Source: an uncultured Bacteroidaceae bacterium
Lineage (GTDB): Bacteria; Bacteroidota; Bacteroidia; Bacteroidales; GCA-2748055
Direction: 5' to 3'
Assembly: GCA_964528675.1 (NCBI GenBank)
Contig: CAZGTU010000012.1
Coordinates: forward strand, 6,477-70,476
Length of the DNA: 64,000 bases
The position numbers and the translations under genes are program-made. Positions 17,382-22,183 of this stretch are shown in pieces. Each line of letters opens with the position of its first letter. The first letter of the stretch is position 1. The notes under the pieces were generated by a model. That model was not told where the DNA came from and did not search any database. It saw only the letters and a program-made list of their open reading frames with translations.

Positions 17382-18791
17382 ATGAAGAAAATACCCGTCT
17401 TTTTGTTTGTCCTTTTAGTATATTCTTATATTTCATTAAATGCTCAACAATACGAAATTAAAATAAATATTCCGGATTATTCCGGAAAAAGAGCTTACCT
17501 GGCATTGCTTCAGGGTGATGAGAGTGTTCTTGTGGACTCAACTGTGGTGAGCAACGGAAAGATTGAATTTTTATTTGATAAAGAAAAAGCTCTGGGATTA
17601 TACCGGCTTTTTCTTTCCGATCCTGCCCTTTCTCAAATGCAACGGAGAGAACCTGTTCATTTCGATTTTATTTTCAATCGGGAAAACATTGAATTAATGA
17701 GCAGTTACTCATCACTTCTTAAGGATATGGTAGTATTCAGATCCAGGGAAAACAAAAAATATTTTGACTTTTTAAGACTTAAATCTGATTACCGTCGCCA
17801 TTTAAGTCTCTTACTCCCTTTGACTGAAGTCTATGATAGCACAGACAGTTTCTTTTCCTCTCTCAGGAGGGAATTACTGAATGTACAACTGGATTATAAT
17901 GATTCTCTCGTGAAATTGGCAAATACAGATCCCCATATGCTCGTTTCTTCATTAATTGCTTTAAATAGAGAACCTGTTTTTGATCCCGGGAAACACGAGA
18001 ATCTGACAGGTTTTATGAGAGAAAATTATCTTGCCACTGTGAGTTTTACAGATGAGAGGCTTCTTAATACAAATGCAATCACTCAAAAGGTCATTTCATA
18101 TTTAAGTTTTTATCGTGGACAAGAAATGAACAGGCAGGAACAGGAAAAAGCTTTTATTCAGGCTGTTGATAAGATCATGGAAGAGGTGAGTTATAACCAG
18201 GAAATCTATGATTTTGTTCTTGATTATCTCATCGATGGATTTGAACAATTTCAGATGGAAGAAGTGCTGGTCCATATTGCGGATAATCATCTAACCGGGG
18301 AATGTAAAACAGAAAGTGAAGAAATTGCAAAAGAAAGACTGGAAGCCTACCAGAAAATGGCTCCGGGAAAAAAGGTCCCTGATATTAATCTTCTCGATCC
18401 TTTCGATACCCCTCATCGTTTATCTTCCCTTGAAAATGAAATGATCCTTTTAATTTTCTGGTCATCAGAATGTCCCCACTGCACCAATCTTTTACCGCGT
18501 CTTAATAAATGGTATAATAAAGAGAAGGAAAACTATGATCTGGGTATTTATACCGTATCGATTGATGATAGCAGAATTGATTGGGAGGAATTCGTCCTGA
18601 TGAATGAACTGGATTGGATCAATGTTTATGATCCGGAAGGATGGGAAAGCACCACCTCTCAAAGGTATAATATTTATGCAACTCCTACCATGTTACTATT
18701 GAACAAGGATCTGAAGATTATAGCTAAACCTATAACCTTCAGAGATGTGAAGCAGGCTATTGAAGATGAGACTCGAATCGTGAATAATTAA
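17382..18791 (+). CDS. TlpA/redoxin-family thiol-disulfide oxidoreductase with a long N-terminal domain
   Basis: Signal peptide and a C-terminal thioredoxin fold with a CxxC motif (WSSECPHCTNLLP) and YNIYATPT. Confidence 0.75.
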   Translation: MKKIPVFLFVLLVYSYISLNAQQYEIKINIPDYSGKRAYLALLQGDESVLVDSTVVSNGKIEFLFDKEKALGLYRLFLSDPALSQMQRREPVHFDFIFNRENIELMSSYSSLLKDMVVFRSRENKKYFDFLRLKSDYRRHLSLLLPLTEVYDSTDSFFSSLRRELLNVQLDYNDSLVKLANTDPHMLVSSLIALNREPVFDPGKHENLTGFMRENYLATVSFTDERLLNTNAITQKVISYLSFYRGQEMNRQEQEKAFIQAVDKIMEEVSYNQEIYDFVLDYLIDGFEQFQMEEVLVHIADNHLTGECKTESEEIAKERLEAYQKMAPGKKVPDINLLDPFDTPHRLSSLENEMILLIFWSSECPHCTNLLPRLNKWYNKEKENYDLGIYTVSIDDSRIDWEEFVLMNELDWINVYDPEGWESTTSQRYNIYATPTMLLLNKDLKIIAKPITFRDVKQAIEDETRIVNN

Positions 18792-18840: not shown

Positions 18841-19044
18841 TCAAGTGTTATTTTCTTTTTCGCCCAGAACCTGAAGCATTAAAGGATAAGCCTGATGCAT
18901 GGTGTTTTTAACAACATTGAATACCAGTCTTCGGTAATGATGTAAACGGTTTTCAATCACTCCGGGTATATTTTGGTTTACACCCGTGCGACAATATTCT
19001 CCAAGCTGATTTTGAGCTTTAGCCGTGGGTTTTTGAAGATTCAT
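18841..19044 (-). CDS. DUF2063 (MbnC/BufC/HvfC-like) N-terminal fragment, 67 aa
   Basis: RLHHYRRLVFNVVKNTMHQAYPLMLQVLGE matches the R..YRNN....AL...YP....LG block at the N-terminus of DUF2063 proteins. The ORF stops immediately afterwards, and only 49 nt remain before the convergent neighbouring gene. It overlaps the MNIO gene by 26 nt. Confidence 0.55.
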   Translation of the reverse strand: MNLQKPTAKAQNQLGEYCRTGVNQNIPGVIENRLHHYRRLVFNVVKNTMHQAYPLMLQVLGEKENNT

Positions 19045-19864
19045 GATATACCTCCCAATGACTTTTTGTTATTTGTCTAAGCTTTGATAATTCGGCATTC
19101 AGGGCATCCATCTCATTGAAATTGTAATCTCTCTCCAGTAAAACCGGAACCGGTTTCATTTTGCTCACGGTCCATTCAAATAACTCATAAACCGGATCGA
19201 TAATTGGTTGTCCATGGGTGTCAATAATGAGATCAGGTTCTACCTGCTCATGGCCGGCCATATGAATATAGGCAACCTTATCCAGGGGTAATTGAGATAT
19301 GAAATGGTAAGGATCATACTTGTGATTAAATCCATTGACATAAACATTATTTACATCAAGGAGTAGTTGACAATCGGCTTCTTTTACGATTTCTTTTATA
19401 AAATCCAATTCACTCATCTCTGCAGCAACAGGTGTGTAATACGATACGATTTCAATTGCAATATTCCTTTCAAGTATTTCCTGTGCCTGCCTTATTCTGC
19501 CAGCCACATGATAGACCGCATCTTCTCTGAAAGGTATTGGAAGAAGATCATACATGTGCGCGTTCTGACTTTTTGTATAACTCAGATGTTCAGAAAAGAT
19601 CTGTACATCGTATTTAATGAGGAATTTTTTCAATTCATCCAGAAAATCCATGTCTAGCTCATCCGGACTGCCCAGAGACATGGAAAGTCCGTGACAGGTG
19701 ACCGGGTATTTTTCCGATGCTCTCTCAAGGATCTTTTTCCAGTAGCCTCCGATCCCCATCCAATTTTCCGGGGCGAATTCGATAAAATCCGGATTTAGTT
19801 TGTCCGAATCTAACAAGGTATCTGCGATATCTCTTCTAAAACCTATTCCTGTTGATGTTTTCAT
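19019..19864 (-). CDS. DUF692 / MNIO (multinuclear non-heme iron oxidative) RiPP maturase, MbnB/BufB/HvfB-like
   Basis: MKTSTGIGFRRDIADTLL...PDFIEFAPENWMGIGG...CHGLSMSLGS...FSEHLSY...HMAGH...LERDYNF is the typical DUF692 TIM-barrel pattern. ATG 19864 is preferred over the GTG at 19888 used by the track. Confidence 0.88.
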   Translation of the reverse strand: MKTSTGIGFRRDIADTLLDSDKLNPDFIEFAPENWMGIGGYWKKILERASEKYPVTCHGLSMSLGSPDELDMDFLDELKKFLIKYDVQIFSEHLSYTKSQNAHMYDLLPIPFREDAVYHVAGRIRQAQEILERNIAIEIVSYYTPVAAEMSELDFIKEIVKEADCQLLLDVNNVYVNGFNHKYDPYHFISQLPLDKVAYIHMAGHEQVEPDLIIDTHGQPIIDPVYELFEWTVSKMKPVPVLLERDYNFNEMDALNAELSKLRQITKSHWEVYHESSKTHG

Positions 19865-19880
19865 GATTTTTTGTTTTAAA

Positions 19881-19961
19881 GAATTCACGTTGGGTTCCCA
19901 GTCTTAACATACACCCAATGACATTCAAACTTCTCATCGACCGGTATCCGAACGTGAATTC
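19881..19961 (-). promoter_or_regulatory. intercistronic stem-loop between the precursor gene and the MNIO gene
   Basis: Perfect 11-bp inverted repeat: GAATTCACGTT at 19881-19891 and AACGTGAATTC at 19951-19961. The 59-nt loop contains a smaller TTGGGT/ACCCAA stem. Confidence 0.45.
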
Positions 19962-19982
19962 TAAGATTTCATACTGCCTTTT

Positions 19983-20393
19983 TTAACCGCATTTTCCTTC
20001 GCCGCATTTTGCTTCGGGTGTTTTTCCTTCAGCTTCTTTGGATTTCTTTTTTCCTTCTTTTTTAGCGGATTCGGCCTTTTTAGCATCTGACTTTTTGTCT
20101 TCAGCTTTTTTTTCCTCAGTTTTTTTCGCTTCTTTTTTCTTTTTTTCATTTTCTTCTTCTGACTTTCCTTCTCCACACTTTCCTTCTCCGAATTTATAGT
20201 TATTCTCATTATGGAGAATATCCGGCGCATTGAGATTCATAATTTCACTTCTGACTTCAGCTCCTGAGCCCATGGCAGAATAATCAGGTATTTCTGCCTT
20301 TGTCTCATTAGCTGCAAAGCTTGTGAGAGAAGAAGTAAGAATAGCTCCTGTTAATAATGAAGCGGACATAAGGATGTTTTTCTCTTTTTTCAT
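19983..20393 (-). CDS. secreted Cys-motif RiPP precursor, HvfA/bufferin-like metallophore candidate
   Basis: 136 aa with a Sec signal peptide (MKKEKNILMSASLLTGAILTSSLTSFA). There are only three Cys (73, 130, 135), all in (E)GKCG contexts: GEGKCGEGK and a C-terminal AKCGEGKCG. A K/E-rich spacer of about 50 aa separates them. The gene lies directly upstream of the DUF692 gene. Confidence 0.72.
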   Translation of the reverse strand: MKKEKNILMSASLLTGAILTSSLTSFAANETKAEIPDYSAMGSGAEVRSEIMNLNAPDILHNENNYKFGEGKCGEGKSEEENEKKKKEAKKTEEKKAEDKKSDAKKAESAKKEGKKKSKEAEGKTPEAKCGEGKCG

Positions 20394-20468
20394 AACAAAT
20401 TAATTTTAAATTTTGTATTGGATTCATTTTATTAGTCGATAGCAAAATGATTTCCTTACAGAATTTAA

Positions 20469-20556
20469 AAAAAATCTTCCTGTTCCGCCCAGGCGGATAC
20501 AGGGTAAAAAACAGGAAGATTTTTTAATGTGTCAAAGTAGATCTAATTAGTGTCTG
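20469..20556. repeat. hairpin module related to the 14435 family; functions as a terminator on the minus strand
   Basis: 15-bp perfect stem AAAAAATCTTCCTGT (20469-20483) / ACAGGAAGATTTTTT (20511-20525) encloses TCCGCC-CA-GGCGGA. On the minus strand the stem is followed by a T-run. CTAATTAGTGTCTG at 20543-20556 is identical to 14434-14447. Confidence 0.55.
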
Positions 20557-20595: not shown

Positions 20596-20889
20596 TTATT
20601 TGAGTTCTTTGAGGACACGGGTTTTAATTCTTTTCTTCTCACTGGAGTTTAGATGATGATGTTTTCCTGCTTCAAGATGTTTTTGAAAATATTCGTCCAG
20701 TATTCTGATATCTCTGGCATAGCGTAAACAATATTTACAGCTAAGCAAATGAATACGCAAATTCATCCTTTCTTTAAAATTCAGTTTATTGTCTCTTGAT
20801 TTAGAAGCAAGGTAGGTGGCTTCATCGCATGCAATCATCATCCTGGCAAGCTTTGCCATCATTTTATTTCTGAGAGAATTATTATTCAC
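20596..20889 (-). CDS. putative zinc-binding (ZAS-type) anti-sigma factor, cytoplasmic
   Basis: 97 aa with the HxxxCxxC motif (IHLLSCKYCL), no transmembrane segment, and a His run (GKHHHL). Located immediately downstream of the ECF sigma gene. Confidence 0.55.
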   Translation of the reverse strand: MNNNSLRNKMMAKLARMMIACDEATYLASKSRDNKLNFKERMNLRIHLLSCKYCLRYARDIRILDEYFQKHLEAGKHHHLNSSEKKRIKTRVLKELK

Positions 20890-20935: not shown

Positions 20936-21586
20936 TTATTTCTCCATCCATTTTTTTTCCAGGCATTGCCGAATTTTCAAACGGGCTCTATGCAGTAATA
21001 CCCACAAATTTGACGATGTAATTTCTAATTCCTTACAGATTTCCTCGCTTTCACATTCCTCTATGATTTTCAAAGTAAAGGCAGCTGCCCATTTCTGTGG
21101 AAGAAAAGAAATGCATAATTCCAGTATTTTCTGAAACTCATCTCTTTCGATCATTTCTTCAATATTAAAGCCGGATTTTCCCGGAGCTGCATCTTTTTTC
21201 CAATGTCCCTTAAAAGGTCCTTCCTGCTGAAATGGTAAATTTTCACCTCCCACTTCCCAGTTCTTATCAATGATCATTTTTTCTCTCGAAGTACCGGCTT
21301 TACGATAATGATCAATTATTTTATTTTTCAGGATTGAAGTCAGCCATGTTTTTTCCTTGCTCTCACCTTTAAATTTTTCTTTTGACTTGAGGGCGGACAG
21401 AAAAGTTTCCTGAACCAGATCTTCGGAAAGTTCTCTTTGAAATACTCTGCTCATAGCGTAACTGAAGAGATAATCCCCATATTTCTCTGTCCAGAGGGAA
21501 GGATCGGATATATTACCTGGTTTTTTCACAGTCATTTCAGAAGGCAATATAGATTTTTGAAATGAAAATAACAATTTTGTATACAT
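20936..21586 (-). CDS. ECF-type sigma-70 family RNA polymerase sigma factor
   Basis: Region 2 (DLVQETFLSAL...) and region 4 (ICKELEITSSNLWVLLHRARLKIRQCL) are recognisable. The real start is probably ATG 21535 (MTVKKPG...). Confidence 0.88.
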   Translation of the reverse strand: MYTKLLFSFQKSILPSEMTVKKPGNISDPSLWTEKYGDYLFSYAMSRVFQRELSEDLVQETFLSALKSKEKFKGESKEKTWLTSILKNKIIDHYRKAGTSREKMIIDKNWEVGGENLPFQQEGPFKGHWKKDAAPGKSGFNIEEMIERDEFQKILELCISFLPQKWAAAFTLKIIEECESEEICKELEITSSNLWVLLHRARLKIRQCLEKKWMEK

Positions 21587-21748: not shown

Positions 21749-22183
21749 ATGAATAAAATATTTTTTATTTTGATTTCAGTATTATCCACTTTCTCAGCTA
21801 GTGCTCAGGGGCATTCTGATTTAAGGGTTGAGATTGAAGGGCTTAGAAATCAAGAAGGTAAAATCAGCATTACTCTTTTCAACAGTCCCGAAGGATTCCC
21901 TGAGGATATAGACAAGGCGTATAAATGGAAAACGCAGGATTTAAATGAAGAGAAGCCGGTATTCACTTTTGAGGGTCTTCCAGCAGGTGAGTACGCTTAT
22001 GCAATTCTGCATGATGAAGATGGTGATGGGGAAATGAAAAAGAATCTGCTTGGAATTCCCAGGGAAGGATTTGGTTTTTCAAATAATTACAAACCCAGAA
22101 TAAAAAACCCATCGTTTCAGGACGCTTCATTTTCTCTAAGCGGTGGATCCGAAACACACCAGATTGAAATCATATATTTTTAA
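21749..22183 (+). CDS. DUF2141 domain-containing secreted protein
   Basis: 144 aa with a signal peptide. The pattern L.VEIEGLRN.EGKI.I.LFNS...FP...GEYAYA.LHDEDGDGEM..N.LGIPREGFGFSNN is typical of DUF2141. Confidence 0.78.
   Translation: MNKIFFILISVLSTFSASAQGHSDLRVEIEGLRNQEGKISITLFNSPEGFPEDIDKAYKWKTQDLNEEKPVFTFEGLPAGEYAYAILHDEDGDGEMKKNLLGIPREGFGFSNNYKPRIKNPSFQDASFSLSGGSETHQIEIIYF

Follow-up and report, generated by a model that had tools for sequence, protein, structure and literature searches.

The 64,000-nucleotide window analysed here, from an uncultured Bacteroidaceae bacterium (contig CAZGTU010000012.1), carries on its minus strand, at positions 19983–20393, a gene for a signal-peptide-bearing protein with Lys-Cys-Gly motifs. 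We put the probability at roughly 80% that this open reading frame (ORF) encodes a true precursor of the HvfA, oxazolin or Buf_EGKCG kind (the 'Lys-Cys' captophorins), trimmed, and placed in a locus without hvfC and doxX in which maturation has probably been lost. The protein belongs, as a divergent and in part degenerate member, to a known class and does not form a new one. The first-pass annotation, made from the letters alone, had recognised an MNIO-associated, signal-peptide-bearing Cys-motif precursor of HvfA type, and the neighbouring maturase and the Sec signal regions described below bear this out. It had also suggested a distinct subclass by architecture, a view that we do not share: the layout lies inside the normal family range, and 54 of 72 relatives match the NCBIfam model NF050137. 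The features that carry this reading are as follows.

19983–20393, minus strand: hvfA-like precursor gene, 136 residues plus stop (ORF, homologues, codon-position bias)
20313–20393, minus strand: Sec-type signal peptide, residues 1–27, predicted cleavage between SFA and AN (inspection and AlphaFold2 helix)
20229–20282, minus strand: conserved box Y-x-x-(M/L)-G-S-G-A-E-V-R-S-E-(I/L), residues 38–55 (alignment A1, AlphaFold2)
20163–20189, minus strand: GEGKCGEGK, the first motif, whose single Cys is Cys73 (shorter by one 15-nt GEGKC unit than in the nearest relatives)
20019–20162, minus strand: K/E-rich low-complexity spacer, residues 78–125 (composition, AlphaFold2, alignment with L001 and L002)
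19986–20018, minus strand: C-terminal module PEAKCGEGKCG with Cys130 and Cys135, the canonical paired site (near-invariant in family alignment A1)
19019–19888, minus strand: hvfB, MNIO (DUF692) maturase, likely true start ATG at 19864 (NF003818, PF05114)
18841–19044, minus strand: hvfC remnant of 67 residues, the first ~63 native, covering the start of DUF2063/HvfC_N only (NCBIfam/Pfam, protein comparison)
18847–18857, no strand: deletion junction with A-rich microhomology (blastn against L081, run contigs)

According to the ORF list and its translation, the precursor gene starts with ATG and runs for 136 codons plus stop. Cysteine occurs solely at residues 73, 130 and 135; GKCG begins at residues 71 and 133, KCG at residues 72, 129 and 134, and the C terminus reads EAKCGEGKCG, followed by the stop codon. 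Two of the three xKCG pentamers are EGKCG and one is EAKCG, that is, repeats of the EGKCG type. ORF, translation, cysteine positions and a spacer of about 50 residues all stand as first described. By inspection, the N terminus has the regions of a Sec signal (MKKEK, a hydrophobic stretch of 20 residues and a signal peptidase I-type site at SFA-AN); AlphaFold2 (AF2) places a helix at residues 5–28, and the pattern recurs throughout alignment A1. The 48-residue spacer between K77 and P126 contains 19 Lys, 12 Glu, 6 Ala and 4 Ser, the rest being Thr, Asp, Gly and Asn, and no hydrophobic residue; low-complexity sequence rich in K/E/A/S/G makes up about 80% of the mature chain. With the family alignment, AF2 returned a mean predicted local distance difference test (pLDDT) score of 52.6, and apart from the signal helix it was confident only at residues 44–55, a short helix in the box with a pLDDT of about 70. 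Most of the spacer scored below 50, with a weak helix at residues 84–96 only. This low confidence predicts a disordered mature chain, in agreement with the disorder first presumed for the spacer, and led us to reject a rigid single α-helix (ER/K) as its structure. A Pfam scan of the precursor gave no match, DUF2282 included; weak NCBIfam matches (Ig-blocking protein, ArfC and others) were discarded as low-complexity noise, and no second precursor copy was found in the window.

The neighbouring gene identifies the system. hvfB begins 94 nt downstream of hvfA and encodes an HvfB-type MNIO enzyme, scoring 377.1 bits against a cut-off of 360 on NF003818 ('HvfB family MNIO-type RiPP peptide maturase', where RiPP denotes a peptide synthesized by the ribosome and modified post-translationally) and E = 8e-98 on Pfam PF05114. 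It falls below the cut-offs for BufB (271.4 versus 310), MbnB (43.9 versus 325), ApyH and ChrH. A bufferin (Buf1) identity was rejected on the maturase score against the BufB model, NF050167, and on the missing Pfam match of the precursor, and a methanobactin identity on the score against the MbnB model, TIGR04159, and on a precursor of 136 residues with a signal peptide.

To place the protein in its family we used 80 genome loci (L001–L080), recovered through the neighbouring hvfB, and one ENA metagenome contig (L081). The 80 loci come mostly from Bacteroidales/Marinilabiliales-type metagenome-assembled genomes, Labilibacter, Sunxiuqinia, Saccharicrinis, Chitinophaga and Sphingobacteriaceae, with a few Ignavibacteriales and Calditrichaceae. 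Wherever a query-based search detected the precursor (61 of 80 loci), it lies immediately upstream of hvfB, and most Chitinophaga loci that this search missed have precursor ORFs with CG motifs in the same place. A word-indexed search of one database gave 203 homologues at E ≤ 0.001 (80–151 residues long among the 120 matches listed), and an exhaustive profile search of 1.84 billion cluster representatives gave 486 clusters (50% identity) at E ≤ 0.001 and 244 at E ≤ 1e-10. Over codons 1–70, the window differs from L001 and L002 at 61–67 positions, of which 36 and 38 are third, 16–17 first and 9–12 second codon positions, an excess of third-position substitutions that supports the reading frame. 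Homologues, conserved Cys motifs and codon-level conservation, whose lack in relatives would have spoken against the gene, are thus all present.

Architecture statistics were taken from 184 non-identical relatives, which share a common plan: a signal peptide, a short variable linker, a box of consensus [YF]-x-x-[LM]-G-S-G-A-E-[VL]-R-S-x-[LI], and then xKCG clusters with spacers between them. In alignment A1, Gly42 and Arg48 of the box (window numbering) are invariant and Gly44 reaches at least 90% conservation; almost all of 142 further relatives have the box or something close to it, and the first Cys follows it by 24–44 residues (mode 33). Together with the C-terminal EAKCGEGKCG, the box is the most conserved part of the family in this alignment, and it is likely to be a recognition or docking element for the HvfBC complex. 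Each protein has one to four Cys clusters (six in one relative), each with one to three xKCG pentamers, most commonly EGKCG (448 occurrences), EAKCG (149) and ELKCG (115); 84 of 406 clusters hold a single Cys. Cys-Gly motifs number two to nine per protein, an odd number in 96 of the 184, and many relatives terminate exactly at KCG or one residue beyond. Spacers between clusters range from 9 to 64 residues (median 26), and a second mode lies at 50–55; the check proposed in the first-pass annotation, for spacer length that varies while the CG motifs stay fixed, thus comes out positive. Their composition is 34% Lys, 17% Glu, 15% Ala, 9% Thr, 8.5% Ser, 7% Gly and 6% Asp, with essentially no hydrophobic residues. 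The window's 1+2 Cys layout is found in 2 of the 184, and its spacer lies at the long end of the range; a few relatives share spacers of 50–64 residues.

Arg is entirely absent from the family spacers despite their Lys content. An Arg-free spacer also occurs in the characterised precursor FonA, from a high-GC organism, so codon bias alone is probably not the cause. At two loci (L032 3489–3882 and L080 3462–3874) a frameshift in the spacer splits the precursor into two overlapping ORFs, which reflects natural decay that has gone further or a faulty assembly of the repeats.

Another difference between the window and its relatives lies downstream of hvfB. L081 encodes hvfA, hvfB, hvfC (250 residues, HvfC_N plus HvfC_C) and doxX (144 residues), followed by a convergent thioredoxin-like gene. 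By blastn, the window is collinear with L081 at 96% identity save for a missing segment of about 1008 bp (L081 1724–2731), which takes hvfC codons ~64–250 and the whole of doxX. What remains, an ORF of 67 residues with four foreign codons at its end, is confined to the first ~55 positions when aligned with the HvfC model (237 positions) or Pfam DUF2063, and has lost the whole HvfC_C/RRE part; of a PME1 partner, with its DUF2063 N-domain and RRE C-domain, the window holds the stub alone. At the junction the window reads GAAAAAGAAAATAAC, and the two L081 ends read GAAAAAAAATTTAAC and AGAAGAAAATAAC. hvfC encodes about 250 residues in L081 and in every one of the 80 loci whose contig spans the entire gene, and doxX lies immediately downstream of hvfC in L081 and in at least 48 of the 69 loci that extend far enough; a tblastn search for a second hvfC or doxX found none in the window. 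The text of the first-pass annotation mentions neither the truncation of hvfC to 67 residues nor the doxX deletion, both of which change the functional reading.

The deletion is supported by the assemblies of several runs. Logan contigs of X1–X3, runs from three samples of one study, cross the junction without differences or branches (word depths 42, 8.5 and 18). Contigs of a fourth run, X4 (a sediment metagenome from another study), break at 18853 and 18768 and then continue identical to the intact hvfC and doxX flank of L081. As the junction was assembled alike in three runs, the deletion is a real allele and not an artefact of a single assembly. HvfB yields no product without HvfC, in vivo or in vitro (PMC11252979; preprint 10.64898/2026.07.17.739211), and its active mixed-valent di-iron state forms only with HvfC (preprint 10.64898/2026.07.17.739211). 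Because HvfC is indispensable in every characterised system, maturation is probably disabled in the window strain. By analogy with those systems, the strain would be unable to mature its precursor, or would do so only poorly, and would probably still make and export it. The locus seems to be in the early phase of losing its function.

The motif layout points to decay as well. The nearest relative, P0001 on L081, is 93% identical in protein and, over 1.6 kb, 96% identical in DNA. In place of the window's GEGKCGEGK it has GEGKCGEGKCGEGK, a difference of one perfect 15-nt GEGKC unit, and in run X4 the same extra unit, ACTTTCCTTCTCCAC, is inserted behind position 20161; the lone Cys73 is explained by contraction of this 15-nt tandem repeat. 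The long spacer aligns, in protein and in DNA, with two spacers plus the central KCGE[AG]KCG module of L001 and L002 (window ...KKAEDKKSDAKKAE------SAKKEGKK...; L002 ...KKAEAKTSEAKCGEAKCGEGEKKAEKK...; L001 ...KKAENKTSEGKCGEGKCGEGKEEKK...) and still keeps the pre-module signature K-[TK]-S-[ED]-[AG]-K. The second mode of family spacers, at 50–55 residues, equals two typical spacers plus one module, and the nearest relatives likewise lack the central Cys pair. Most likely, judging from this alignment, the 48-residue spacer represents two ordinary spacers fused across a degenerated central module, which suggests a trend from 2+2+2 through 2+2 (L081, P0001, P0002) to 1+2 (window). The odd architecture is best explained as a degenerate state reached through lost motifs, and not as a new design.

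Several points weigh against reading the locus as a decayed member of the HvfA class. The window protein reaches only 17 bits on NF050188, the HvfA equivalog model with a cut-off of 95, and has no match to NF050137 ('KCGExKCG_twice', a 29-position model with a cut-off of 19.5) even at E ≤ 10. hvfB retains 106 of 107 near-invariant columns. The deletion allele is known from the study of X1–X3 only, and intact alleles may co-exist in those samples at frequencies too low for contigs to show. A look for RNA-seq runs from which expression could be read gave none. A second PME1 gene beyond the 64-kb window could complement the loss. The intact state of hvfA, promoter and hvfB implies either a very recent deletion or continued usefulness of the genes left behind. 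Loss of the central module, as opposed to gain, is read from one low-complexity alignment.

The model scores are put in proportion by those of the relatives. None of six relatives tested reaches the NF050188 cut-off (best 33.9 bits), and 64 of 72 relatives match that model. On NF050137, matched by the 54 relatives at E ≤ 0.01, P0003 (24.5 bits), P0006 (19.6) and P0038 (36.8) lie above the cut-off, P0002 reaches 8 bits and P0001 has no match. The window protein, P0001 and P0002 fall short because the model needs two close KCGExKCG pairs, whereas this lineage has one pair and a long spacer. As NF050137 misses long-spacer members, pipelines would probably annotate such genes as 'hypothetical'. 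The JGI label for several relatives is 'uncharacterized low-complexity protein'.

Foremost among the alternatives is a fully functional locus, in which HvfB would mature the three-Cys precursor through a PME1 encoded elsewhere, through the 67-residue stub or alone, giving a copper buffer of small capacity. We consider this unlikely, though it deserves serious attention. It draws on the intact hvfA, extracytoplasmic function (ECF) promoter and hvfB with its conserved columns, and on the abundance of the deletion-bearing strain in three samples (up to 42×). hvfB differs from its L081 counterpart by eight synonymous and seven non-synonymous substitutions, mostly at variable sites; neither this comparison nor the near-invariant columns revealed signs of decay in hvfB, and relaxed selection was not demonstrable. 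(The hvfB of L001, the closest genome-derived relative, is 86% identical to that of the window.) doxX is lacking in about 20 of the 69 related loci and hence dispensable for some relatives, which favours a working locus, and some MNIOs of another subfamily (DybH) work without a partner (PMC13056109). These points are countered by the inactivity of HvfB without HvfC in vivo and in vitro, the dependence of the mixed-valent iron state on HvfC, the full-length hvfC in every fully covered relative locus, the lack of a second copy in the window and the stub's loss of the whole HvfC_C/RRE part.

A second alternative, raised by the first-pass annotation, sees a distinct subclass in which the long disordered K/E spacer tethers the Cys73 and Cys130/135 metal sites as an adjustable entropic linker. 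The predicted disorder, the variation of spacer length around fixed motifs, the few relatives with spacers of 50–64 residues and the frequency of single-Cys clusters (84 of 406) would all fit. Yet the 1+2 layout is confined to 2 of 184 relatives and is one slipped 15-nt unit away from a 93%-identical protein, the spacer aligns to two spacers and a lost module, characterised members have spacers of the same kind that are merely shorter, and the data contain no sign of selection for spacer length. A FonA substrate with a single EGKCG repeat was, moreover, not modified by FonBC in vitro (PMC13097082); against that result stand the family's single-Cys clusters and NedA, with three modified motifs. 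Contraction plus a degenerated module is the better explanation for the supposed tethered pair, and we regard a tether subclass as highly unlikely.

More improbable still is that the unmodified protein has a function of its own, as a secreted polycationic or polyampholyte disordered protein acting in envelope binding, as a chaperone-like buffer or as a scavenger of oxidants or copper by means of plain thiols; the cysteine motifs would then matter only secondarily in this lineage. The persistence of ORF and promoter after the loss of hvfC, the ~80% low-complexity mature chain and the loss of the central Cys pair in the nearest relatives could be taken that way; however, conservation in the family is highest in EAKCGEGKCG and the box, the gene in relatives is always linked to hvfB and hvfC, and nothing supports another function. 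A chance ORF in AAG/GAA-rich sequence, as the low-complexity composition and an overlapping 89-residue ORF in another frame might suggest, is already refuted by hundreds of homologues with a conserved non-repetitive N-terminal half, fixed synteny, the third-position bias and a conserved promoter ahead of the gene. That overlapping ORF (19961–20230, +1 frame, same strand) was itself rejected as a gene: the longest open run in the same frame ranges from 29 to 84 codons among 61 relatives, so its open length is not conserved, and it is a by-product of composition, as first noted.

The window protein, read as a trimmed 'Lys-Cys' captophorin precursor, can be compared with characterised systems. 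The HvfA of Haemophilus influenzae has a Sec signal and three AEGKCGEGKCG repeats, with all six Cys modified (−4 Da each); the modified protein binds about one Cu(I) per Cys pair, and modification by HvfB requires co-expression of HvfC (PMC11252979). The modification was later revised to 5-thiooxazole (PMC13097082; preprint 10.64898/2026.07.17.739211) and tied to copper detoxification, and the name captophorins (copper-associated peptidic thiooxazole metallophores) was given to what MNIO-PME1 clusters produce; the EGKCG pentamer typifies their 'Lys-Cys' group (PMC13097082). Conversion of Cys to 5-thiooxazole and Cu(I) binding are known for FonA and NgoA as well as HvfA. NCBIfam names NF050137 'HvfA family oxazolone/thioamide-modified RiPP metallophore'. 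The Buf_EGKCG/oxazolin signature covers about 2,000 proteins of 31–506 residues, mostly from Pseudomonadota, with signal peptides, EGKCG repeats and adjoining MNIO, DUF2063 and DoxX genes (PMC12452194). In the PMC13097082 supplement, 173 MNIO-PME1 clusters are listed for Bacteroidota, which puts occurrence in the phylum already on record at cluster level.

The profile of the window's family aligns to the K-x-x-E-[AG]-K-C-G-E-G-K-C-G modules of FonA, HvfA and NgoA, and weakly to 'SDLGAG' of FonA, the counterpart of the box. In FonA, HvfA and NgoA, K/A/E-rich spacers of 8–22 residues separate KCGEGKCG pairs (PMC13097082 supplement). Of the comparison that the first-pass annotation had proposed with HvfA-type members, the shared KCGEGKCG modules remain, but the separation as a subclass does not.

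FonA (fontiphorin of Fontimonas thermophila, Pseudomonadota; PMC13097082) resembles the window protein in its signal peptide, E[AG]KCGEGKCG clusters and adjacent MNIO. Its clusters of two or three Cys are joined by K/A/E/D-rich spacers, and MNIO and PME1 genes adjoin it, whereas the window locus has no functional PME1; FonA has seven Cys and spacers of ~11 residues, as against three Cys and one 48-residue spacer. Its DLGAG element resembles the LGSGAE box, which is far better conserved in the window's family. HvfA of nontypeable H. influenzae shares with the window the Sec signal, the C-terminal KCGEGKCG module, an HvfB-type MNIO next door and, presumably for the window, control by an ECF sigma/anti-sigma pair. 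Unlike the window protein, it has 95 residues, three regular repeats, a disulfide-bonded N-region and no LGSG box; its genes run doxX-hvfA-hvfB-hvfC and the sigma gene lies elsewhere, whereas sigma and anti-sigma genes adjoin the window locus. NgoA (gonophorin, Neisseria gonorrhoeae) and NedA (Neisseria dentiae) are like the window protein in the irregular number and spacing of xxCG motifs, single motifs and odd counts; their spacers are K/A-rich, and both lack the LGSG box. NedA is a lipoprotein processed by signal peptidase II with three EGKCG motifs, and its −12 Da shift corresponds to three modified Cys. The Neisseria sigma and anti-sigma genes belong to the same regulon as the cluster and are arranged differently from those in the window. 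Buf_EGKCG proteins as published have 17-residue repeats, a β-helix model and an origin in Pseudomonadota, whereas the window's family is irregular, with predicted disorder, and comes mostly from Bacteroidota. Bufferins (BufA1/DUF2282, Buf2) and methanobactin (MbnA) also carry Cys-derived heterocycles made by an MNIO and a partner and bind copper, bufferins with a Sec signal. Bufferins, however, have a folded core, and the window precursor has no DUF2282 (PF10048) domain; methanobactin precursors are short leader-core peptides, as opposed to 136 residues with a signal peptide.

On the minus strand, the locus runs in the order ECF sigma gene, ZAS anti-sigma gene, hairpin with U-run, hvfA, hvfB and the 67-residue hvfC remnant. 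Its regulatory features are as follows.

20936–21586, minus strand: ECF sigma-70 factor, TIGR02943-like (NCBIfam, Pfam regions 2 and 4)
20596–20889, minus strand: small cytoplasmic anti-sigma factor with ZAS motif H-x3-C-x2-C (HLLSCKYC) (NF052368)
20469–20525, minus strand: strong terminator-like hairpin with a trailing U-run, separating the anti-sigma gene from the hvfA promoter (folding)
20435–20459, minus strand: putative ECF-type promoter of hvfA, GTAAGG-N15-CGAC (motif count, conservation)
21012–21036, minus strand: second ECF promoter motif, TGTAAGG-N15-CGTC, inside the sigma gene (conservation across loci)

The sigma factor scores 157.6 bits on TIGR02943, slightly below the cut-off of 162.2, and 88.5 bits against 42.9 on TIGR02937. 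Its anti-sigma factor reaches 57 bits on NF052368 (cut-off 50) and 19.6 bits on Pfam zf-HC2, below the cut-off of 22.2. The hairpin has a folding energy of −25.7 kcal/mol (z-score −5.1), and none of 200 shuffles was as stable; an intrinsic-terminator scan missed it because its loop exceeds the limit of that scan, and direct folding confirmed it. The window has two matches to GTAAGG-N15-[CA]G[TA]C, a motif with the form of an ECF promoter, where 0.11 would be expected. This motif lies 54–97 nt upstream of hvfA in 46 of 59 loci, including loci without an adjacent sigma gene, with near-variants in most of the others. In L001 (2547–3737), hvfA has the DUF2141 gene as its immediate neighbour, sigma and anti-sigma genes being absent between the two, and GTAAGG-N15-CGAC is kept 65 nt upstream of hvfA, an arrangement that indicates gain or loss of the regulator pair as a cassette.

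The second motif falls among the sigma codons of region 4.2 for C-K-E-L-x-I-T-x-S, some 100 nt short of the stop codon. Among L002–L080 it is present in 54 of 55 sigma-bearing loci, always 91–106 nt ahead of the stop and never upstream of sigma. A Lys codon within it is AAG in 55 of 55 loci (background 36%), and a codon whose amino acid varies (P/S/A/T/E) has G as its third base in 55 of 55. Synonymous sites fixed in this way suggest that selection acts on the DNA itself, for a promoter that depends on sigma. We consider it probable, from this conservation, that the internal motif is a sigma-dependent promoter driving only the anti-sigma gene, which would provide negative feedback without positive autoregulation. 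A literature search by title for ECF promoters inside sigma genes showed no directly comparable case among the titles listed.

The hvf cluster of H. influenzae is dependent on RpoE2, an ECF factor, and induced by hypochlorous acid (HOCl); the H. influenzae and Neisseria clusters belong to an ECF sigma regulon with a small cytoplasmic anti-sigma factor and respond to HOCl or oxidative stress (PMC7907618). The same sigma/anti-sigma logic most likely applies, by analogy, at the window locus. Gene, synteny, motifs, promoter motif and deletion are observed in the present data, and homology with the characterised systems suggests how they would act together. Under oxidative or metal stress, the thiol-sensitive ZAS anti-sigma factor would release the adjacent ECF sigma factor, which would fire the GTAAGG-N15-CGWC promoter and transcribe hvfA-hvfB(-hvfC-doxX). 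In the cytoplasm, a heterodimer of HvfB (MNIO) and HvfC (PME1/RRE), with the LGSGAEVRS box as its likely docking element, would turn the xKCG cysteines into 5-thiooxazoles. The product would be exported by Sec and cleaved by signal peptidase I after SFA, and the disordered, very soluble K/E-rich chain would bind periplasmic Cu(I) at about one Cu per modified Cys pair. In the window strain the modification step by HvfBC is probably blocked; if the protein were modified, the C-terminal pair would form one canonical site and Cys73 a half-site.

The oxazolin/captophorin class, so far characterised only in Pseudomonadota, gains a well-populated, mostly Bacteroidota family that extends to Ignavibacteria and Calditrichia, with a sharply conserved box that could be the HvfBC docking site and with long-spacer members that current annotation models miss. 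The near-identical strains also amount to a natural 'experiment', in that they differ by a 15-nt contraction and a 1-kb deletion of an obligatory partner; such alleles show how these loci gain or lose metal sites and decay. A bolder proposal, which we hold to be very unlikely, is that the 'LGSGxE(V/L)R-box' proteins, mostly from Bacteroidota, form a separate captophorin subclass, that slippage of 15-nt units and module decay rapidly alter the number and spacing of its thiooxazole sites and so tune copper capacity strain by strain, and that the window, with a sigma-controlled precursor and an MNIO both intact after the loss of hvfC and doxX, represents partner-independent or trans-complemented MNIO maturation, or a functional unmodified precursor.

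Two further genes flank the locus in the window, L001 and L002: on the plus strand, 17382–18791 encodes a periplasmic thioredoxin-like protein of 469 residues (DUF4369/DUF5106/Thioredoxin_8, weakly ResA/TlpA-like), and 21749–22183 encodes a DUF2141 protein. The two may have a functional connection with thiol or copper handling in the periplasm. The final residues of the thioredoxin-like protein are not the same in the window as in L081. In X3, the assembly branches at 18766, where a 366-nt contig (7.5×) departs from the window sequence (18×) for CGGGGGCAGATTGTGAGCC..., which matches neither L081 nor any locus fetched; that sample thus also contains a third allele of the thioredoxin-like gene at its 3′ end.

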